Shown: positions 3,301 to 64,000, numbered from the stretch's first letter. The stretch is DNA of 64,000 bases from Candidatus Aminicenantales bacterium (GCA_049697055.1 JBAVVA010000020.1:219-64218); one strand, 5' to 3'. Numbers and translations: made by a program. The notes: generated from the letters alone by a model not told the origin.

Positions 3301-3464
3301 ATGTTCTCCCTCACCCGGAATGAGCGGCTCTCTTGAAATATATCTTTTTTGGAATTATCATTTCAATACAAAACTGGAAAGGAAGGAGGGCCTCCCGTGG
3401 ATCCTGTCGGGACTATTCAAGCCCCTGTCGCAAGAACCGCCGCTTATCTTATAAGGAAAAGCAA

Positions 3465-6400: not shown

Positions 6401-8108
6401 CAAGGAAGCGCCCTTCCGCGGGCTGGAAACTATTTTCCGGCTTCAGCCGGTCTATCTCAACGGCCACTACGAGGGGTTTATTTTCAACCTGATTGATGTG
6501 ACCGAGCTGGTCCTGGCCAAGAAGGAAGCCCAGGCCGCCAGCCGGGCCAAGAGCGAATTCCTGGCCAACATGAGCCACGAGATCCGAACTCCCATGAACG
6601 GGATATTCGGAATGACCGAGCTGGCCCTGGGCACGGAGCTCACTCCGGAGCAGCGGGAGTACCTGGAAGCCATAAAGACTTCCTCCGAATCCTTGATGAA
6701 CATCATTAACGACATTCTCGACTTCTCCAAAATCGAGGCCAAAAAGTTCGAACTCGATCCCGTCCAATTCAATCTCCGGGACACGATCCATAACATTATT
6801 TCCGTTATGGCCATCCAGGCCGACAGGAAAGGCCTGGAACTGGCTTACTCCATTCCGCCGGATATTCCGGACCGGGTGATCGCCGATCCCGGACGACTCC
6901 GCCAAATCCTGACCAACCTCATCGGCAACGGCATCAAATTTACGGCCAAGGGAGAAGTGATTGTGACTTTGGAAAAAGGCGAGCAGACGCCCTCCGGCAC
7001 GTTGATCCATTTCAAGGTAAAGGATACAGGAATTGGAATCCCCCCGGTCAAACAAAAGATGATCTTCGACCCCTTCATGCAGGTGGACAGCTCCATATCG
7101 CGAAAATACGGGGGGACGGGCCTGGGCCTGGCCATCACCTCCCATCTGGTCGAGATCATGGGCGGAGAAATATGGGTGGAAAGCGAGCTCGGGCGAGGCA
7201 GCACTTTTCATTTCACCGTTCAGATGGGGCTGGCTCAGACTCCGGAGGTGGAGTTGAAACCCGTGGAATTCAAGGATATCAAGGACCTCAGAGTGCTGGT
7301 GGTGGACGACAACGCCACCAACCGGCAAATCCTTCAAGAGATGCTCACCAACTGGCAGATGCTGCCGGCCGCGGCGGAAAGCGGAATCCAAGCGCTGACC
7401 ATGCTGGAAAGCTCCAGCACCCTGGGCCAATCCTTTCCCCTTATTCTTCTCGACGCCAATATGCCCGAAATGGACGGCTTCACTTTTGCCCAGAGAATCA
7501 AACAGGATCCCCGATTTTCCAGCATTCTCATCATGATGATCAGTTCCGCCGGCATCCGCGGCGACGCCGCCCTCTGCCGGAAACTGGGTATTTCCGCCTA
7601 TCTGACCAAGCCGATCAAGCAATCGCTTCTTCTGGACGCCATCCTGCTGACGCTCGGAACGACCGCCGAAAAACAAGAAGCCCTGCCCTTGATCACCCGT
7701 CATTCTCTACGTAAAGCCGGCCGTCCCCTAAAAATTCTCGTGGCCGAAGACAACATCATTAACCAAAAGATGACCGAGCGCGTCCTCCAGAAATATGGTC
7801 ATAGCGTCAAGATTGCCCAAGACGGCGTTGAGGTGCTGTCCCTCCTGCCGACCGACACTTTCGACCTTATCCTGATGGACGTCCAGATGCCCAACCTGGA
7901 CGGCTGCCATACGACCATGGCCATTCGCCAAGAGGAGAAAAAAACGGGCACTCATATTCCCATTGTGGCCATGACCGCCCACGCCATGAAAGACGACAAA
8001 GAACGCTGCCTGGCCTCGGGCATGGATGATTATATCTCCAAGCCCATCAAGCCGGAATTCCTGATCGAAGTGATCAATCGGGTGATCGTGCGAAAAGAGA
8101 CCTTCTAG
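3465..8108 (+). CDS. Hybrid sensor histidine kinase with periplasmic double beta-propeller (two-component-regulator propeller repeats + Y_Y_Y), TM, coiled coil, PAS, HisKA, HATPase and two receiver domains
   Basis: Start at ATG 3465 (RBS aaggaaa). Signal-like 'LIWLWLSLLCLTPALQAQ'. More than 14 repeats of 'DxxGxLWIGTxxGLNRFD'. H-box 'HEIRTPMNGI'; G-boxes 'GNGIKFT', 'GGTGLGLAI'. Two REC domains (asp pockets 'LLDANMPEMDG', 'LMDVQMPNLDG'). Confidence 0.85.
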   Translation: MKEPRRLGIVIVTEEKFGEKKCLGPRGAKKPVLGKALIWLWLSLLCLTPALQAQEEPFQVRRLANQEGLSQNAVNWIIQDRKGFMWIGTQDGLNQYDGLRFTVYASDPADPNSLPDGNILALHEDGQGNIWIGTLAGGLNRLDRETRKITSFRHERGNPNSLANDRVTSICEDNSGTLWVGTYGGGLDRFDPASKKFTHYRNDLKNPNSLINDRINCLIRDSSGLLWVGTFDGLDRFNPGPGEFVHFRHAPHDAASLNDNQVVAICEDRSGNLWIGTENGGLNEYILREKRFISFGNNPQDPLSFSTNNIRTIFEDSRGLIWIGTRRGGLSLLNPETQKVTRYRYDSKNPNGLSSDDIRFFYEDRTGMIWIGTFGGGLNCYNPAKKAFIHYTRQEGDPQSLAGYAVRAIYQDRLGNLWIGTFNGLNRFDPKTKRFNLYQYNPGASQGLSSNLVYCITEDRQGALWVGTQGGGLNRFDPRTNLWTRYLHNPKNPGSLSDDIVNTIFFDRGGVLWVGTLLGLDRFDRSKNSFSHCQNDPNDPASLSDNDIRVVYEDRSGKMWIGTRNGGLNAFDRSTGKFRRYLHDPENPQSLSNNCIFCIYEDRSGIIWLATRGGGLNRFNPATETFSHYTVKQGLPNNVVYGILEDDPGNLWLSTNRGLACFNPNTQKFKKYDVRDGLQSNEFNFGAYCKTKNGEMLFGGINGFNIFHPSDLKDNPHIPPVVITDFQIFNKSVPLGQGPGGRPILKKCITESEAVALSYKENVFSFEFAALDFIMPDRNEYAYKMDGFEKDWNYVGQRHFVTYTNLPPGRYVFRAKGSNNDGVWNEEGAALKITITPPFTQTIWFRGGAILAGLLLILSYIQLRTRAIRQKNIQLEENVQERTSELQKEIQERRQAEQIIQKEAAKLGAMISGMEEGILLADPHDQILEVNGYFLKLLGKKKSELIGKPLWDFDPFQEAGDLRKDIQEFKEKPNSSAVVKEAPFRGLETIFRLQPVYLNGHYEGFIFNLIDVTELVLAKKEAQAASRAKSEFLANMSHEIRTPMNGIFGMTELALGTELTPEQREYLEAIKTSSESLMNIINDILDFSKIEAKKFELDPVQFNLRDTIHNIISVMAIQADRKGLELAYSIPPDIPDRVIADPGRLRQILTNLIGNGIKFTAKGEVIVTLEKGEQTPSGTLIHFKVKDTGIGIPPVKQKMIFDPFMQVDSSISRKYGGTGLGLAITSHLVEIMGGEIWVESELGRGSTFHFTVQMGLAQTPEVELKPVEFKDIKDLRVLVVDDNATNRQILQEMLTNWQMLPAAAESGIQALTMLESSSTLGQSFPLILLDANMPEMDGFTFAQRIKQDPRFSSILIMMISSAGIRGDAALCRKLGISAYLTKPIKQSLLLDAILLTLGTTAEKQEALPLITRHSLRKAGRPLKILVAEDNIINQKMTERVLQKYGHSVKIAQDGVEVLSLLPTDTFDLILMDVQMPNLDGCHTTMAIRQEEKKTGTHIPIVAMTAHAMKDDKERCLASGMDDYISKPIKPEFLIEVINRVIVRKETF

Positions 8109-55917: not shown

Positions 55918-57360
55918 GTGAACGCACCGTCGGCTCCCAACGGCCCCCCTGGCCGCAAAGTCCCTCTGCCCGTAGCCCTCCTGCCCCTCCTCTTTATGGC
56001 CGGCCTCCTGGGGGTGGGCTACGGAGTCTACAAGATCAAGCCCCAGGTGCTGCTGGTGGTGGCGGCCTTCTTCACCGGCCTCCTGGCCCTCCTCCTCCAC
56101 TTCAACTGGAAAGAGATGGAGCGGGGCATCGTGGACAGCATCCACAAAGCCATGCCGGCCATCCTCATCATGCTGACGGTGGGCATCCTCATCGGGGCCT
56201 GGATCTCCTGCGGCACCATCCCCCTGGTCATCTATTACGGTTTGAAGATCATCTCCCCCCAGTTCTTCCTGGTGACGGCCTGCCTGGTGTGCACTATAGC
56301 CGCCATGGCCACCGGCACCTCGTGGGGCACGGTCGGCACGCTGGGCGTGGCCTTCATGGGCATCGCCATGGGCCTGGGCATCCCTCTGGGTCCGGCGGCC
56401 GGCGCTGTGGTGGCTGGCTCCTACATGGGCGACAAGATGTCCCCTCTATCCGATATCCCCAACCTGGCTACGGTCATCTCCGGGTCGAACCTCTTCGACC
56501 ACATCAAGCACATGATGTGGTCGGCCGTTCCGGCCTGGCTCATCGGCCTGGCCGTTTACGGCCTGGCCGGCCTGGGCTACGGCCAGGGCGGAGTCAGCTC
56601 CGAGACGGTGAACCTCATCACCGACACTCTGCGCCGGGAGTTCCTCAACCGGAACCCCTGGCTCAATCTGCTGCTGCTCCTGCCCATGGCCATCGTCTTC
56701 TTCTTCGCCGTGGCCAAGAAGCCGACCATCCCAGCCATGCTCCTGTCCTCGGCGGCGGCCGCCGTCCTGGCCCTGGTCCTCCAGAAAATGCCCCTCACCG
56801 AGTTCGCCGTAGCGGTCAACTCCGGCTACCGGGCCCACAGCGGCGTGGAGATGGTGGACAAGCTGCTGTCGCGGGGCGGGATGATGAGCATGATGGAGAC
56901 CCAGCTGGTGGCCTTCACCGCCTTCAGCTTCGGGGGCATTATGCAGAGCACCGGCATGCTGCGCGTCATCCTCAATTCCATCATGGGCCTCTGCCGGAGG
57001 GTGTGGAGCCTAGTCCTGACCACGGTGGCCACGGCCATCGTCTCGGCCCTGGTCACGGGCAGTTCCTACCTGTCCATGATCATCCCCGCCGAGCTGCTGG
57101 CGCCGGCCTTTAAGGAGAAAGGCCTGGCGGCCAAGAACATGTCGCGGATCATCGAGGAAAGCGGCGGGATCATCGTCCCCCTCATCCCCTGGAGCATGGC
57201 CGGCGTCTACATCACCGGCACCATCGGCGTCCCCACCTTGTCCTACCTGCCCTGGGCCATTATGAACTATGCTTCGGTGGCCATCCTCATCCTCTTCGGG
57301 GCCACGGGCTTCACCATGGCCGCCCGCAAACGGGAAGACGAAACGCAGGCCGGAAGCTGA
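55918..57360 (+). CDS. NhaC-family membrane transporter (Na+/H+ antiporter NhaC-like), co-transcribed with iadA
   Basis: 480 aa, about 12 TM, 11-nt gap after iadA. Confidence 0.65.
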   Translation: MNAPSAPNGPPGRKVPLPVALLPLLFMAGLLGVGYGVYKIKPQVLLVVAAFFTGLLALLLHFNWKEMERGIVDSIHKAMPAILIMLTVGILIGAWISCGTIPLVIYYGLKIISPQFFLVTACLVCTIAAMATGTSWGTVGTLGVAFMGIAMGLGIPLGPAAGAVVAGSYMGDKMSPLSDIPNLATVISGSNLFDHIKHMMWSAVPAWLIGLAVYGLAGLGYGQGGVSSETVNLITDTLRREFLNRNPWLNLLLLLPMAIVFFFAVAKKPTIPAMLLSSAAAAVLALVLQKMPLTEFAVAVNSGYRAHSGVEMVDKLLSRGGMMSMMETQLVAFTAFSFGGIMQSTGMLRVILNSIMGLCRRVWSLVLTTVATAIVSALVTGSSYLSMIIPAELLAPAFKEKGLAAKNMSRIIEESGGIIVPLIPWSMAGVYITGTIGVPTLSYLPWAIMNYASVAILILFGATGFTMAARKREDETQAGS

Positions 57361-57811
57361 TCCAGTCCAGCCGAGGCTTATTTCTTTTGACAATCACTCA
57401 TTTAATGGCGAAGTTTGCCGGAGGCGGGAATAGCGCGATCAAAGGCCCAGTTCTTGATCTGTTTAACGAATTATTACTCCATTCTTATTAATATCTTTAT
57501 ATATATCATTTATATCTTTTGAAAACTTGGCACAGGCGCCCGGCTTTCCCCAAATTGTTGTAGCTATAAAGAAATTATTGTTTTCTGCTTTCGTTTCATC
57601 TGAATAGAGCTGTATTACATTCGAATTAAAAATATGTATCCGCATTTTTAATAATATAGAATATGCATACTGCGAAAAATTATCAATAAGGATAATATCT
57701 TATGGCAATAATAGGAATAAAATGGGGAAAACCATTAAAAAGAATTCGGGGTATTGAACTGTCTGTTTCCGATTTATTGACATTCCTTAGAGATATCCTC
57801 AAAATGCAATT

Positions 57812-59191
57812 ATGAAAAAAATGGGCCTGCTTTTTCTTGTTCCTTTGGTTTTTTCGCTGTTAACTTTTCCGGCACTCTCTGTCGCTGCGGCGGTCGACGA
57901 GACAGAGCTCCACCAAATCCTGAAGGACGCGGTGGAGAATCGGCGTACGGTCGGCATCGTCGTGGGGATCGTCGATGCCAATGGCAAGATGATCTCCAGC
58001 TATGGAAAAACCGCAATTGGCGGCGGCGATGTCGATGGAGACAGCGTCTTCGAGATCGGCTCGATTTCCAAGGTATTCACAACCACGCTGCTGGCCGACA
58101 TGATCCAGCGGGGCGAAATCAGCCTCGATGATCCCGTGTCGAAGTACCTGCCCAAGAATGTGACGATGCCGGCACGCGGCGGCAAAGTGATCACTTTGCT
58201 CGACCTGGCGACGCACCGGTCCGGGCTTCCTCGCCTTCCGGATAATATCAAGCCGGCAGATCCCATGAATCCGTACGCCGGCTACACGGCCGAGATGCTG
58301 TTCGATTTCCTCTCGCGTTGCACCTTGACCAGGGACATCGGCCAGAGCTATGAATACTCGAATCTCGGCGTCGGCCTTCTTGGCGAGGTGCTGGCGCGGA
58401 GAGCTGGCAAGAGCTATGAAGCTTTGCTCACCGAGAGGATCTTCCGCCCCCTGGATATGAACAGCAGCGGCATTGTCTTGAGGCCCGAGATGTCGGCCCG
58501 GCTGGCCATGGGGCATTCGGCCGGATTGGTCCAGGTCAAGAACTGGGACATTGATGCTCTCGCCGGCGCGGGCGCGATCCGCTCGACCGCTACCGATATG
58601 CTCAAATTCATGGCCGCCAACATGGGGCTGGAGCCTTCGCCGCTGGCTAAGTCGATGGCCATGGCCCGGCAGGACCTCAAGGACACGACGATCCCCGGCA
58701 TGCGCATCGGCCTCGCCTGGCACCTGATGACACGCCCGGACACGGTGATCGTGTGGCACAACGGCGGAACCGGCGGGTACCATAGTTTCGCCGGGTTCGA
58801 TTTGAAGAAAGGACTGGGCGTCGTGGTCCTGTCGAACAGCGCGAATAGCATTGATGACATCGGCTTTCACATCTTGGATGATCGATTGCCGCTGGCCAAA
58901 CCTCCGAAGGAGAGGAAGGAGATCGCCTTGGAACCGGCGGAGCTGGATGCGTACGCCGGGGAGTACCAGCTGGCGCCGAATTTTATGATCACCATCACCA
59001 AAGAGGCGGACGCGTTGTTCGCGCAGGCAACAGGGCAGGGCCGCGTGCGCCTGTATCCGGAGGCCGCTGGGGAATTCTTCATCAAAGAAGCGGACGCCCA
59101 GATCTCTTTCGAGAAGGACGCGACGGGGCGGGTGACGCACCTCGTCCTCCATCAGGGCGGCGTCGACCAGAAAGCAAGCAAGGTCAAGTAA
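57812..59191 (+). CDS. Class C beta-lactamase / penicillin-binding-protein family serine hydrolase, secreted
   Basis: Signal 'MKKMGLLFLVPLVFSLLTFPALSVAAA'; 'SISKVF' SxxK, 'YEYSNLG' YxN, 'HNGGTGG'; preceded by a very AT-rich 450-bp spacer. Confidence 0.8.
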   Translation: MKKMGLLFLVPLVFSLLTFPALSVAAAVDETELHQILKDAVENRRTVGIVVGIVDANGKMISSYGKTAIGGGDVDGDSVFEIGSISKVFTTTLLADMIQRGEISLDDPVSKYLPKNVTMPARGGKVITLLDLATHRSGLPRLPDNIKPADPMNPYAGYTAEMLFDFLSRCTLTRDIGQSYEYSNLGVGLLGEVLARRAGKSYEALLTERIFRPLDMNSSGIVLRPEMSARLAMGHSAGLVQVKNWDIDALAGAGAIRSTATDMLKFMAANMGLEPSPLAKSMAMARQDLKDTTIPGMRIGLAWHLMTRPDTVIVWHNGGTGGYHSFAGFDLKKGLGVVVLSNSANSIDDIGFHILDDRLPLAKPPKERKEIALEPAELDAYAGEYQLAPNFMITITKEADALFAQATGQGRVRLYPEAAGEFFIKEADAQISFEKDATGRVTHLVLHQGGVDQKASKVK

Positions 59192-59315
59192 GCGACCCGG
59201 AAAGAATATTCAATGAGGCTCTAGAGCCGGTCCGCACGGCCGATGCCAAGGACATGGCCAGGCGCCTCGCGCGGGAGGAGGCCCTCTTTGTTATAATCTG
59301 GCCACAATTGTTCCC

Positions 59316-59362
59316 GCCGGGGTGGCGGAAGTGGCAGAGGCAAGGGATTTAATACCCTCCTG
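59316..59362 (+). pseudogene. 5' half of a tRNA-Leu(TAA) gene (acceptor 5' strand, D arm, anticodon arm) with upstream TATAAT (59292-59297); no T-arm/3' acceptor follows
   Basis: 'GCCGGGGTGGCGGAAGTGGCAGAGGCAAGGGATTTAATACCCTCC' parallels bacterial tRNA-Leu(UAA) through the anticodon arm; no GGTTCGA-like T-arm nor CCCCGGC follows. Confidence 0.45.
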
Positions 59363-59469
59363 TGGGAGATGATTTGTCTTTTTATTCATAGTGGAAAGAA
59401 GCGCAAGGGGGCACAAAAAATGACTTATGAAGCAATAATTAAAAGGAGAGTTAGGGGCGATACTCACGT

Positions 59470-60669
59470 TTGTCTTTTATTGTGGCTTATCTGTTCAGTT
59501 GCTGGCTGGCCAGTACCCAGCACGCCCAAAGCGCTATCACGCCTTTGATGAAGCCGGACCCCTGGAGTCAAAACATCATCACTCAAAAGGTCCAGATTAT
59601 TCTGCAGATCAAGATGAAATCAGTTTTCAAGGATAGGATCTGCGGCCTCATTACTGAGGATTTCACCTACGATTATGAAATCAATTCAGAGGGCACATTT
59701 CAATACGCGCCGGACTTCAGCCTATTTAGCCTATATGGATATAATGAGGCCCTTGCTCCCAAGCAGATCCGAATCCGGGACGCCAGCGGATATTGGATCC
59801 GGTTCGAGAGCGGATGCCAGGGGGGGACCCGTCATAATTACTCAACTCACCAAGTCCAATACAACGATTGGGCTTATTATGACCTCAGGATCGAGCATCC
59901 CCCACGCTCTGAACACTGCAACGTATATTTTGACAACCATGTGTACCTCCGGTTTCCTGGCTATTCGGGAAATGTTCTCACATCTCCAGAACCGGGTTTC
60001 TATTATGACACCGAGAATATTGACTATATGGTCACTCCGGCGATTATGCAGCAGGCGGTGAGGGAAGGAAGCTATCATAAGACCTTGCAAGTCAGGAGAG
60101 GAGACGGTTCTGAGTATCGCGATTTGACTCTGGACATCACAGTCCTCTTTGAGCCCAAGGAGGAAGGAGTCCTCAAGGTCACGCCACCTGACGGCCTGGA
60201 TGAGTCCTGTCCCAGCTCAAATTGTGATTTCAAATCGCTGGCCAAATCCTATACCCTAACCAACGCGGGCTCTTCTCCGATCAATTACACTGTCTCCAAA
60301 ACGGCAAGCTGGCTTGAACTCACCCCGACTGGTGGCGTATTGCAGCCAGGCGCTTCCACAACTGTAACAGCATCCATTAGCGTTGAGGCCCAAAAAGAAC
60401 TCAAAGAAGGGGTACACAAAGATACTCTTAGCTTCACTAACACGACTAATGGGAAAGGAAACACATCACGCGCTGTCAAGCTGGAGAAGTCTGAACGACA
60501 ATGCTGGCGCGTCACCCTGACTGGACAGGAAACAGATGACATGGGTGGCAGCTTAATGACCATTAAGATGGAAGATGTTTGGAAGCAGGTAACCGTTGAC
60601 TATGGGGTCCGGTTTGACTATCAACTGGTTGCCGAATTCAATATTAGAGCTTGTTCCAAAGTTACGTGA
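59470..60669 (+). CDS. Hypothetical protein, lower-GC, with C-terminal Ig-like/BACON-like beta-sandwich; 3' end created by IS insertion (likely truncated)
   Basis: TTG/GTG start uncertain; 'YTLTNAGSSPINYTVSKTASWLELTPTGGVLQPGASTTVTASI' pattern typical of Ig-like surface domains; last 7 codons (ACSKVT*) lie inside the IS left inverted repeat. Confidence 0.4.
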   Translation: MSFIVAYLFSCWLASTQHAQSAITPLMKPDPWSQNIITQKVQIILQIKMKSVFKDRICGLITEDFTYDYEINSEGTFQYAPDFSLFSLYGYNEALAPKQIRIRDASGYWIRFESGCQGGTRHNYSTHQVQYNDWAYYDLRIEHPPRSEHCNVYFDNHVYLRFPGYSGNVLTSPEPGFYYDTENIDYMVTPAIMQQAVREGSYHKTLQVRRGDGSEYRDLTLDITVLFEPKEEGVLKVTPPDGLDESCPSSNCDFKSLAKSYTLTNAGSSPINYTVSKTASWLELTPTGGVLQPGASTTVTASISVEAQKELKEGVHKDTLSFTNTTNGKGNTSRAVKLEKSERQCWRVTLTGQETDDMGGSLMTIKMEDVWKQVTVDYGVRFDYQLVAEFNIRACSKVT

Positions 60670-62080
60670 TGGCATTTGACAGCGATAAAAAAGAAGGGCT
60701 ACAACCCTCCGTGGTGTCTCCCACAACACTAGGAGGTGTAGCCCAATGGACGACCTCGAAATCAAGATCGCCATCACCTATAAGGTACCAAAAAACAACC
60801 TCACGCTCAACGGTCTTCTGCGCGGGTTGGAGCTCAACCGGGATGAGATCATGAGGGCCATCCTCGGCCGCATCTTGGAAGCCTTGGAAGAGAAGGCCAA
60901 GGACGATTATCCCCCGGGTCGTTATGTCCTGAACGGCCATCAATCGACGGCTCGGAACCTTCGGACCTCGTTCGGGCGGATTCGTCACCGGATGGCTCAG
61001 GTCCTGGATCGGACGACGGGAGCGGTCGTGTTCCCTCTGATCGAACGGTTGAAGATCGAACCGTATCGCCAGTATCAGAGGGAGACGCTGGAAGCGCCGG
61101 TGGGCCAGGCGATCCATCTGTCCTACCGCTGGGCGACGAAGGAGACGCGACGCCTCCGGGGCCATGGACCGAGCACGAGCACGCTCTGGCGTCGGCTTCA
61201 GGAGGTGGCCGAATCTCAGGGCGGCTGGCCGCCTCTCAAACATCGACCGTTTGCCTTTCTGATGGTCGACGGGACCAAGGTCAGGCGCCAACGCCGAGGA
61301 GTCTCCTTGGAGCCGGCGGAAATGCGCTGGGCCTGGGCCTCGGAAGGCGTTGGTAAACCGTTTGAATTGGTGGGGTTCTGGGTGGGAGACAGATGGGAAA
61401 CGATTCGCCGGGACCTCAGTCGCCGTCTGAGCTATGGGCGTCTGCGGATGCTGTTTTCCGATGGCGGGCCGGGCATCGAGGACAACCTCCGTTCGGCGCG
61501 GATGGAGTGTCAGCGGTGCCTCTGGCATGGTCAACACGACTTTCGCTTTCTTCTCTACGCCGATGAGGTCAAGGGACCGGCCCAACGGGAGTTCCTGGAG
61601 CTTTTGAACCGCAATCCTCTCTTCCACCTGCGGCAGGCGGAGCTGGAAACGCTGAAACCCCAGGACGAGCCTCTGGTGCGCAAGCTCGCCCGAACGATCC
61701 GGAGCGGCTTTGGAGAGCTTCTGGCGGCGTTGCCGGAGAGCCGTTATCCGAAAACGCGGACCTACCTTCTGAACTTCTCGAGGCAGGCGTTGGCGTTTTT
61801 CGATTACTGGCTGGACCATCAACAGTGGATTCCGTTCACGACGAACATTGCCGAGTCGGCCTTCAGTCGGGTGGTGAATCGAATCAAGCGAATCGGCCGC
61901 CGCTGGAGCGAGACCGGACTCCTGAACTGGCTGACCATGGCCTTCCGTAAAATCTTTCACCCCGCGTTGTGGACGTCTCTTTGGCGCCAGTATCTGCGGC
62001 TCCATCGCAGCTTGCATCTGGCCTCTTTAATCTCCGAATACCGATGGATCGATGCCATCACGTAACTTTGGAACAAGCTC
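60647..62080 (+). mobile_element. Insertion sequence with 29-bp perfect terminal inverted repeats (GAGCTTGTTCCAAAGTTACGTGATGGCAT ... ATGCCATCACGTAACTTTGGAACAAGCTC) carrying one DDE transposase gene
   Basis: IRs read directly at 60647-60675 and 62052-62080 (imperfect extension to about 60640/62087); encloses ORF 60746-62065. Confidence 0.75.
60746..62065 (+). CDS. DDE transposase (ISL3/IS256/ISLre2-like C-terminal N-x2-E...IKR motif)
   Basis: RBS aggaggtg; 'FLMVDGTKV', 'MLFSDGGPGI', 'TTNIAESAFSRVVNRIKRIGRRW'; stop codon lies within the right IR. Confidence 0.75.
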   Translation: MDDLEIKIAITYKVPKNNLTLNGLLRGLELNRDEIMRAILGRILEALEEKAKDDYPPGRYVLNGHQSTARNLRTSFGRIRHRMAQVLDRTTGAVVFPLIERLKIEPYRQYQRETLEAPVGQAIHLSYRWATKETRRLRGHGPSTSTLWRRLQEVAESQGGWPPLKHRPFAFLMVDGTKVRRQRRGVSLEPAEMRWAWASEGVGKPFELVGFWVGDRWETIRRDLSRRLSYGRLRMLFSDGGPGIEDNLRSARMECQRCLWHGQHDFRFLLYADEVKGPAQREFLELLNRNPLFHLRQAELETLKPQDEPLVRKLARTIRSGFGELLAALPESRYPKTRTYLLNFSRQALAFFDYWLDHQQWIPFTTNIAESAFSRVVNRIKRIGRRWSETGLLNWLTMAFRKIFHPALWTSLWRQYLRLHRSLHLASLISEYRWIDAIT

Positions 62081-62195
62081 GTTTATTAAGAGACAGGCGT
62101 CCTAAAACGAGGACAAGGTCTGCTATCATTTAAGAGTTCTTTTCATTCAATATTTGGCATAAAAAATGCTTATTAATATGCCGAGGAGGGGAAAG

Positions 62196-64000
62196 ATGAG
62201 CAAACATCAAAAAACTTCAATATTTCTGATTATTTTGGGCTTGCTCGCATTCACTTCAGTCGCATCCGCTGAACAGCCCTACAAGGTTGCCTTCAGCCCG
62301 GCCAACCTCTACCTCGGCCATATTTCTTATGTAGAAATCAAAAACGACGGTCAAGACCCAATGATTTTAAGGGAAGGACAATCCGTGCCGGAGATGGCTG
62401 TCCTCAATGCACCCATCGGTCCGGGGGATGTTATCCGGACATCCGCTATCCGGCGATGCGAGATCCAATTTGACACGGCGACCATTATCCGGCTGGACAC
62501 CGACACGGAACTCAGGATTGAGACAGTCTTAGCCCAGACGTTGTCAGCCAGTGACAGAGCGACCAACCTGGTTCTGGCCAAGGGTCAGCTCTACATCATG
62601 TACAAAGAATTCGATTTTCGTGAACTCTTCCAGGTCATGACCCCTGCCGCCGCCATTAAGTTCAGTCAAGATACGGTGGCTCTGGTCAAGGCCGCGACCG
62701 ACGGGGCGACCGAGCTCCAGGTGAAGCGAGGAAAAGCAACAGCGCTTTTTGGCCCGTCGGCGGCCCAGGCTAAGGGAAGAGGGGTCGGAAAATTGGAGAG
62801 CCTGATCGTTTCCAAAGACGGCCTGGTTCAAAAGGCGGCCTATGCCGCTGATACGGATTTCGGGCGCTGGAACGAAGAAATCAACGCCGCTTTCAATGAT
62901 CTGCACAAAGGTCTGAGCTTTTTGCCCAAGCCCGTGCAGCGCTTTTCCCCGGCCATCGTCGCCTGGGCCGAGAAGTATTCCAGCCGATACGGCAGGTGGA
63001 TTTATGACATGCTCTACGGTTATGTATGGCGCCCTGACAACAATGATGTCTATCCGTGGGTAAACTGGCGGCCCTATTTCTATGGCCATTGGACAAGAGC
63101 CTATGATCAATTGTTCTGGGTCTCCGATGAGCAGTGGGGTTGGGCCCCCTATCATCTCGGCGTTTGGGTTTGGGACAAGGAGTTAGGGTGGATTTGGATC
63201 CCTGGCTCTGTCTTTGCCTCGGCCTGGGTAGGCTGGGGATTTTTCAACGGCTACTATTCTTGGTGGCCCTACGAATTCAGCGATTGGTGGATGTGGAATG
63301 CTTGGGGCAGTAATTATTATGATAACTATCAGTCCTGGTATGTTTACTCTACCACCCCGGGCAAAACGCTGAGGAAGATCTCCAAGGCGCAGTTGAAAAA
63401 GCCCGAACCGCCCCTACCCCTGCCCAACGACCTCAAGGCTGTATATGACCGGTTTGCGGCGGCCCTGAAGAAGCAAGACCCACGCCTGATTGCCTCCCTC
63501 CAACAATCGGTCAAGCGCATCGTCTTTGCATATCCTGCTGACATTCATTTCCCAAACATCGCTGAAAGGGCCATCCCTCTTAGCCAGCTTTCTTCTGCGT
63601 CGGAACTTTTGAAGGCCCAGCCAAGCCCGGCCGATAAAATCCGCCATGAAAATCCCCGTGCTGCGGCCGCCTGGGATTGGAAAAAAAATATCCAGCTTGC
63701 GGCCGCTAAAGAGCCGTCTCAGCGAGCCATAGAGCCGATCAATAAAATTGAGTCTTTCCCGGCCAGCGCAGCCGCCCCAAATATTCAAGCCCCTTCCATC
63801 CGCTTTCTGGACTGGAACCCCGACCTGAAAACGGTCACGCGGTTCGGCGGGACTATTCGCTACTCAAGCCGGACGAATGAAGTCCAATGTCCGGAGCTGG
63901 GATTGACCTCTCGCCTCGTATCTGTTATCGGCCTCCCCTTTCGCTCCGCGGTCGTTATAGACGCCTTCATGGGAGGGGCTAGTCAAGGCTCTTCGGCGTT
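62196..64000 (+). CDS. Secreted FecR-domain protein with extremely Trp/Tyr-rich region and Pro-rich linker (3' partial, runs off window)
   Basis: Not in supplied ORF track (no stop before window end), translated manually with no in-frame stop. RBS gaggagggg; signal 'MSKHQKTSIFLIILGLLAFTSVASA'; FecR-like block 'GPGDVIRTSAIRRCEIQFDTATIIRLDTDTELRI...LVLAKGQLYI'. About 21 W in ~115 aa ('WGWAPYHLGVWVWDKELGWIWIPG...WWPYEFSDWWMWNAWG'). Confidence 0.6.
   Translation, partial: MSKHQKTSIFLIILGLLAFTSVASAEQPYKVAFSPANLYLGHISYVEIKNDGQDPMILREGQSVPEMAVLNAPIGPGDVIRTSAIRRCEIQFDTATIIRLDTDTELRIETVLAQTLSASDRATNLVLAKGQLYIMYKEFDFRELFQVMTPAAAIKFSQDTVALVKAATDGATELQVKRGKATALFGPSAAQAKGRGVGKLESLIVSKDGLVQKAAYAADTDFGRWNEEINAAFNDLHKGLSFLPKPVQRFSPAIVAWAEKYSSRYGRWIYDMLYGYVWRPDNNDVYPWVNWRPYFYGHWTRAYDQLFWVSDEQWGWAPYHLGVWVWDKELGWIWIPGSVFASAWVGWGFFNGYYSWWPYEFSDWWMWNAWGSNYYDNYQSWYVYSTTPGKTLRKISKAQLKKPEPPLPLPNDLKAVYDRFAAALKKQDPRLIASLQQSVKRIVFAYPADIHFPNIAERAIPLSQLSSASELLKAQPSPADKIRHENPRAAAAWDWKKNIQLAAAKEPSQRAIEPINKIESFPASAAAPNIQAPSIRFLDWNPDLKTVTRFGGTIRYSSRTNEVQCPELGLTSRLVSVIGLPFRSAVVIDAFMGGASQGSSA

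Follow-up and report, generated by a model that had tools for sequence, protein, structure and literature searches.

Why does a bacterial chromosome carry the front half of a tRNA-Leu(UAA) gene, with a promoter-like box ahead of it, and nothing of the back half? Partial tRNA genes are known to arise commonly when mobile elements integrate, and now and then through other processes (PMC9897764, PMC4383910). The case considered here comes from an uncultured Candidatus Aminicenantales bacterium, in a stretch of 64,000 nt (GCA_049697055.1, JBAVVA010000020.1:219-64218; hereafter the window, with positions counted from its first letter). A preliminary description of this DNA, made from the sequence alone, had pointed out the lone tRNA half and read it as the leftover of an integration or deletion. 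We therefore consider what the half is and where it ends, whether the rest of the gene is nearby, whether the assembly can be trusted, what surrounds the half, and how it may have arisen.

Identity and End Point of the tRNA Half

The sequence GCCGGGGTGGCGGAAGTGGCAGAGGCAAGGGATTTAA at 59316-59352 on the plus strand corresponds to positions 1-37 of tRNA-Leu(UAA). It comprises the 5' strand of the acceptor stem, the D arm, the anticodon stem's 5' strand, and the anticodon loop as far as its TAA anticodon. Intact genes for comparison came from a scan of metagenomes with a 32-mer from the tRNA half carrying one ambiguous position, which led to two contigs (L007 and L008) on which ARAGORN calls a complete tRNA-Leu(taa), at 2825-2910 and 3306-3391, respectively. 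The tRNA half is identical to the L007 gene at 36 of 37 positions (E 7e-14) and to the L008 gene at 35 of 37 (E 2e-11; both blastn-short, 64-kb window). This significant identity, in register from position 1 and inclusive of the anticodon TAA, identifies the half as derived from tRNA-Leu(UAA), and as the match begins at tRNA position 1 (59316) and not internally, the piece is an end fragment. The sole mismatch to the L007 gene, a G for C at 59339 (sequential position 24, canonical position 23), breaks the G12-C23 pair of the D stem, which is compatible with decay.

Past the anticodon the sequences part, the L007 gene continuing with TTTAAAATCCCTCGCCCC and the window with TTTAATACCCTCCTGTGGG. 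The CCCTC that follows the anticodon in the window differs from the anticodon-stem 3' strand, which it imitates, by one substitution and the loss of 1 nt, and may be either tRNA-derived or attP-like; given this imperfect stem mimic, the tRNA-derived end is placed between 59352 and 59361. The match that the preliminary description had drawn from the acceptor 5' strand through the anticodon arm therefore holds through TAA, but the 3' strand of that arm is imperfect and may not be tRNA-derived. A junction spacer (59353-59385, plus strand) follows, the first part of which, TACCCTCC (59353-59360), is the stretch that mimics the anticodon-stem 3' strand; the spacer is not significantly similar to either the tRNA 3' half or the upstream region of the related downstream gene on contig L010 (see below). 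The leader and tRNA start read CACAATTGTTCCCGCCGGGGTGGCGG, and the junction at the tRNA break reads ATTTAATACCCTCCTGTGGGAG.

Search for a Complete Gene, a 3' Half or an Intron

ARAGORN finds no tRNA in the whole 64-kb window and none in 58001-64000 when introns of up to 3000 nt are allowed, and the relaxed tRNA search that had been proposed for the region, run over 58001-64000, yields only noise and no tRNA starting at 59316. Similarly, Rfam searches of 58500-61500 (E<=10) return neither a tRNA nor an intron family of group I or group II, and the sequence cut at 59353 or 59362 gives no truncated tRNA match; the generic Rfam model lacks the power to recognize a half, and it is the alignment to intact genes that identifies the fragment. 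The variable arm, the T arm and the 3' acceptor strand are absent after 59352 and elsewhere in the window, where matches to the 3' half are at chance level (<=12 nt). The locus lacks the complete cloverleaf of a functional bacterial tRNA gene, and an intact tRNA interrupted by a long intron was rejected as a candidate on the ARAGORN and Rfam results.

The best-known interruption of this tRNA species is the group I intron of tRNA-Leu(UAA) in cyanobacteria and plastids, which likewise lies in the anticodon loop. There the insertion point is between U34 and A35 of the anticodon, with the 3' exon no more than a few hundred nucleotides further on. Here, in contrast, TAA is unbroken, so the classical intron position is ruled out, and neither an intron in Rfam nor a gene in ARAGORN is found. 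Both statements of the preliminary description on this point, that no 3' half follows and that a group I intron does not explain the break, are borne out by these searches.

A -10 Box Ahead of the Fragment

An extended -10 promoter-like box, TGTTATAAT (59289-59297, plus strand; TG at 59289-59290, TATAAT at 59292-59297), is separated from tRNA position 1 by an 18-nt leader (59298-59315, plus strand) read from the sequence. TGnTATAAT is present a single time in the 64 kb, both strands counted, where 0.15 occurrences would be expected, and TATAAT three times on the plus strand; because these motifs are so rare in the window, a chance placement of the box 18 nt before tRNA position 1 appears unlikely. 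The box had been described as a promoter lying 17 nt upstream of the tRNA. The TATAAT is indeed there, but the spacing is 18 nt, and what is present amounts to a -10 box with the putative remains of a cysteine-synthase-like gene just upstream. By sigma-70-type rules, which may not be those of Aminicenantes, a TG-extended -10 element is found and a -35 hexamer is absent, and a two-hexamer scan reports nothing. The leader bears no resemblance to the sequences upstream of the tRNA-Leu genes on L007 or L008.

Assembly Support and an Implied Second Copy

Two Logan contigs from SRR27973238 agree with the window without a mismatch, L001 over 57185-59345 and L009 over 59318-60672. The latter runs from tRNA position 3 across the break and the following BACON gene up to a repeat of an insertion sequence (IS), and a second, conservative assembler thus reproduces the truncated half ahead of the BACON gene, from a read set that may be that of the metagenome-assembled genome (MAG) itself. 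Logan assembles with k=31, lets no 31-mer occur twice and leaves contigs of <150 bp unreported (PMC12424806). L001 and L009 overlap by only 28 nt, and under these rules the two 31-mers over 59316-59347 must form a separate node with other neighbors. Another sequence in SRR27973238 therefore shares exactly tRNA positions 1-32, the G at 59339 included, and in the Logan graph this implied second copy has other bases immediately ahead of position 1 and immediately past position 32.

The same node bears on whether a 32-nt tRNA-Leu repeat led to a false join in the MAG contig. The true continuation of the -10 box and leader would then be an intact tRNA-Leu gene, with the BACON side belonging to another locus. 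The short overlap of the two contigs, the other in- and out-neighbors of the node and a drop in G+C at the junction are what such an artifact would produce. A repeat of 32 nt is, however, shorter than the usual final k-mers or reads of metagenome assemblers, so the path in the MAG is probably read-supported, and the unusual G at 59339 on both flanks fits one contiguous molecule. Moreover, L009 alone crosses the break, so the half would still exist and only its upstream partner would change. We consider a mis-join improbable.

A Mosaic of Broken and Transplanted Neighbors

The tRNA half is one tile of a 4.7-kb mosaic that joins two core-genome stretches and consists, in order, of a bla block, a cysteine-synthase-like relic, the -10 box with leader and tRNA half, a BACON gene, an ISH6-family IS and a FecR block. 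Compared with close relatives, at least five breakpoints fall within these 4.7 kb, most of them at arbitrary positions inside genes, and the neighbors of the tRNA half are all fragments or transplanted pieces.

Genes upstream of the mosaic are housekeeping genes, for example those for IspH, ribosomal protein S1, an acyl-CoA dehydrogenase and a PpiD-like chaperone, with no integrase among them (window proteins at NCBI include MGB9004336.1, MGB9004337.1 and MGB9004339.1). The bla block (57738-59218, plus strand) consists of a gene for a class-C/CubicO-type serine hydrolase (CDS 57812-59191; Pfam Beta-lactamase and DUF3471) with 74 nt upstream and 27 nt downstream of it. The closest genome relatives of this serine hydrolase are in Candidatus Aminicenantes MAGs, and the block is 95-96% identical in nucleotides to four contigs (L013, L015, L016 and L017), all four of which show the order two-component system, bla, 619-aa gene. 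The homology ends sharply at 57738 and at 59215-59218, the window flanks differ on both sides, and no repeats or recombinase were seen at the block ends; the block behaves like a transplanted cassette. Between a Na+/H+ antiporter gene and the bla block lies a very AT-rich stretch (57400-57737; G+C ~0.33, versus ~0.62 around it) that is not common to the relatives carrying the block.

The next tile (59221-59292, plus strand) is a stretch of ~24 codons in one frame, LEPVRTADAKDMARRLAREEALFV, that resembles the ARRLAREEG(L)(L)VG region of cysteine synthase and cystathionine beta-synthase. Its only NCBIfam matches at E<=10 are cysM (0.035), cysKM (0.042) and CysM (0.11), at profile positions 230-257, and all five PDB matches are to cysteine synthase or cystathionine beta-synthase (residues ~242-267, E 0.2-1.7). 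Pfam returns nothing, and among 1.84 billion representatives the only match is a spurious TPR-repeat protein. These weak but consistent matches are suggestive of a putative internal relic of a CysK/CysM/CBS-like cysteine synthase gene, which ends exactly at the start of TATAAT.

Downstream of the junction spacer lies a BACON/Ig-like secreted-protein gene (59386-60646, plus strand; ATG at 59420; Pfam BACON_2; a 399-aa hypothetical protein, WCB96_01290, at NCBI). Its protein is 65% identical in amino acids to P0002, a 604-aa protein encoded on L010, and nucleotide homology to L010, covering the upstream region and coding sequence of the BACON gene, begins at ~59386, so that only ~35-45 nt of upstream DNA in common with the L010 homologue is retained. 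A 1-nt deletion in a T-run at 59475-59478 shifts the frame within the signal peptide; with one T added, an open reading frame from the ATG at 59420 aligns to residues 71-470 of the 604 of P0002, and the coding sequence breaks off at the IS, ~134 codons short of its end. The gene is a double pseudogene, through frameshift and 3' loss. At the edge of the spacer, TTTGTCTTTTTATT (59373-59386) recurs as TTTGTCTTTT-ATT 96 nt downstream (59469-59481). The second copy is the BACON frameshift site and the first has a frame-keeping T5 run; this repeat of TTTGTCTTTTTATT and TTTGTCTTTT may be due to chance in T-rich sequence.

No tRNA half lies upstream of the BACON gene on L010. A decayed one at that place was suggested by MAFFT and was rejected, local alignment against shuffles being not significant. 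L010 also carries a tRNA-Arg(ccg) (7450-7523) ~265 nt downstream of its BACON homologue, at a locus flanked by Ser/Thr kinase genes; it has no link to tRNA-Leu.

The IS (60647-62080, plus strand) has a transposase gene at 60746-62065 (NCBIfam NF041731, E 1.8e-123; Pfam UPF0236) and perfect 29-bp terminal inverted repeats, and its flanks, CAATATTA versus GTTTATTA, show no clean 8-bp target-site duplication. The name ISLre2, suggested by Pfam UPF0236, was replaced by ISH6 family on the NCBIfam match. Beyond the IS, the FecR/DUF6600 block (62081-64000, plus strand; CDS from 62196, running off the window) is core DNA with 90.7% nucleotide identity to L011/L012 and 91.7% to L018. In both of these relatives the left neighbor is ArgRS, unlike anything in the window, and homology to them starts exactly at the right end of the IS, which consequently marks a synteny break and not a simple insertion. 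This synteny break lies 1.3 kb downstream of the tRNA break.

Relatives were also surveyed for an intact site. Neither an intact tRNA-Leu gene nor a fragment of one lies near the bla gene in L002-L005 and L013-L017 (54-96% identity), the BACON homologue on L010, or the FecR orthologues on L011, L012 and L018, and no tRNA or integrase is found within 10 kb beyond FecR in the relatives. In the window itself, no integrase or phage genes are present in 38-64 kb; the interval 59353-64000 contains only the BACON pseudogene, the ISH6 transposase and FecR/DUF6600, with no cognate full-length tDNA. An att repeat was not found, and the downstream DNA and the tRNA half have no matches in phage, plasmid and IMG/VR collections. 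The G+C content downstream of the junction is 0.47-0.51, versus 0.60-0.65.

Origin of the Truncation

We estimate a probability of roughly 0.55 that the half is a dead tRNA-Leu(UAA) fragment produced by illegitimate recombination or stepwise deletion at a rearrangement junction that is partly IS-associated. Illegitimate (non-site-specific) recombination and stepwise deletion would have cut a tRNA-Leu gene, and the same process would have cut the neighboring cysteine-synthase, BACON and bla-flanking sequences. In favor of such erosion, the neighboring tiles are cut at non-att positions, the DNA 22-33 nt past the break is ordinary chromosomal BACON upstream DNA, and the available DNA contains no integrase or island gene. 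Against it, identity stops right after the anticodon, TACCCTC keeps an imperfect inverted repeat of the stem, as an anticodon-centered crossover would, and a random break falls in the 7-nt anticodon loop with a chance of only ~8%; the second sequence with tRNA positions 1-32 implied by the Logan graph likewise counts against it. No direct link can be drawn between the tRNA break and the IS, which lie 1.3 kb apart, and the fragment could also have arrived already truncated, no relative with a syntenic intact tRNA-Leu gene having been found. As for the integration or deletion to which the preliminary description had attributed the truncated tRNA, the truncation, the mosaic breaks and the synteny break at the IS agree with it, and the cause itself is what we infer from them.

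The position of the break would also fit an integrative element that recombined at the anticodon loop and was later eroded. Such an element would have brought its own promoter and 5' half, regenerating the tRNA at the far end of the island and stranding the native promoter and 5' half at the near end as a displaced, attL-type 5' tDNA fragment; deletion and IS-associated rearrangement would then have removed the integrase and the far end. Precedent exists in Islander, in which 159 islands have a 5' tDNA fragment and 3760 a 3' fragment (3919 in total), and 2083 islands have an anticodon-centered attP (PMC4383910). The retention of the 5' part asserted in the preliminary description, here limited to positions 1-37, accordingly belongs to a documented minority (159/3919 islands). 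The break directly after the anticodon with an imperfect stem-like CCCT(C) next to it, the start exactly at tRNA position 1 with the -10 box kept at a sensible distance, and the lower downstream G+C would all be in keeping with this origin, as would the second copy of tRNA positions 1-32 that the Logan graph indicates for the same sample. That copy, however, already diverges after position 32, whereas identical att cores would part only past the anticodon, and the relic directly upstream of the -10 box is cysK-like and not a native tRNA upstream region. Furthermore, 59353-64000 lacks an integrase, an excisionase or any mobile gene except the unrelated ISH6 transposase, the L010-type chromosomal homology that resumes 22-33 nt past the break leaves no room for an attP arm, and from FecR onward the DNA is core in relatives, which have no tRNA or integrase within 10 kb. 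A displaced island end is hence a possible but rather unlikely origin.

Function

With the entire 3' half gone, and with it the T arm and one strand of the acceptor stem, the fragment is predicted neither to form a cloverleaf nor to undergo tRNA processing; both RNase P and aminoacylation require those elements. Judged from its anatomy, the fragment is probably non-functional. The genes of the window use UUA for 6 of 421 Leu codons, and since this codon is rare but present, a working tRNA-Leu(UAA) gene presumably exists elsewhere in the genome. The one plausible residual activity would be read-through from the retained -10 box across the fragment into the BACON gene, which no longer has its native upstream DNA and is already broken.

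A half that is nearly intact (36/37), lies behind a well-placed extended -10 box unique in the window, and ends beside the anticodon calls to mind a functional stand-alone unit, either the 5' piece of a split tRNA or a promoter-driven small RNA or 5' UTR resembling a tRNA half; archaeal split tRNA genes and tRNA-half cleavage have their ends at the same place. In Nanoarchaeota and some Crenarchaeota, split tRNA genes have a separately promoted 5' half ending beside the anticodon. They are archaeal, and need a complementary trailer and leader pair together with the archaeal splicing endonuclease. In contrast, the host here is bacterial (Aminicenantes), and the window contains no complementary partner: the complement of 59355-59372 (<=3 mismatches) is not found in it, and neither is a 3' half in its 64 kb. 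To our knowledge, bacteria do not have the archaeal splicing endonuclease pathway for split tRNAs. Moreover, the predicted RNA fold is no better than that of shuffled sequences (z = -0.01), no terminator follows the half, the D stem carries a mismatch, related loci that were compared have no conserved counterpart, and the gene downstream is the BACON pseudogene. A functional unit of either sort is very unlikely, and it is just as far-fetched that the 5' half was kept because it is used, as a split tRNA-Leu(UAA) piece or a mimic of a tRNA half, with the second copy in the Logan graph as its partner locus.

Relation to Known tRNA Gene Fragments

The nearest counterparts of the fragment are the tDNA fragments that Islander and TIGER catalog and that van der Gulik et al. 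(2023, PMC9897764) discuss, which are likewise end fragments from a gene terminus, missed by gene finders and located in variable, rearranged regions. The anticodon loop is one of the recognized crossover sublocations of such fragments, next to the T loop and the T/acceptor junction; identity at our locus ends after the anticodon (59352), and with CCCTC ambiguous the break falls somewhere in 59352-59361. Unlike those fragments, the present one has no cognate full-length tRNA, integrase or island body in the available sequence, ordinary chromosomal DNA adjoins it, and its neighbors show non-site-specific breakage. As no integrase lies in between over the available DNA, we class it not as a demonstrated island end but as a pseudogene or fragment of a tRNA gene situated at a rearrangement junction, a kind that is already known. 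Relics at IS-associated junctions are similar in being short, collinear, same-strand remnants beside an IS without target duplication at a synteny break, whereas the tRNA break here is 1.3 kb from the IS.

The fragment matters mainly for annotation and for the bookkeeping of genome dynamics, and opens no new biological question alone. In this uncultured Aminicenantes genome it flags a rearrangement junction with several breakpoints, and it indicates that tRNA fragments keeping the 5' part occur besides the classic 3' fragment at an island end. Should an integrative element have been involved after all, the locus would be a rare example of a 5'-displacing island in a phylum whose mobile elements have hardly been characterized. 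Annotation pipelines pass over tRNA fragments of this sort, which is why they seldom attract notice; ARAGORN and Rfam miss them as well, and only comparison with intact tRNA genes reveals them.
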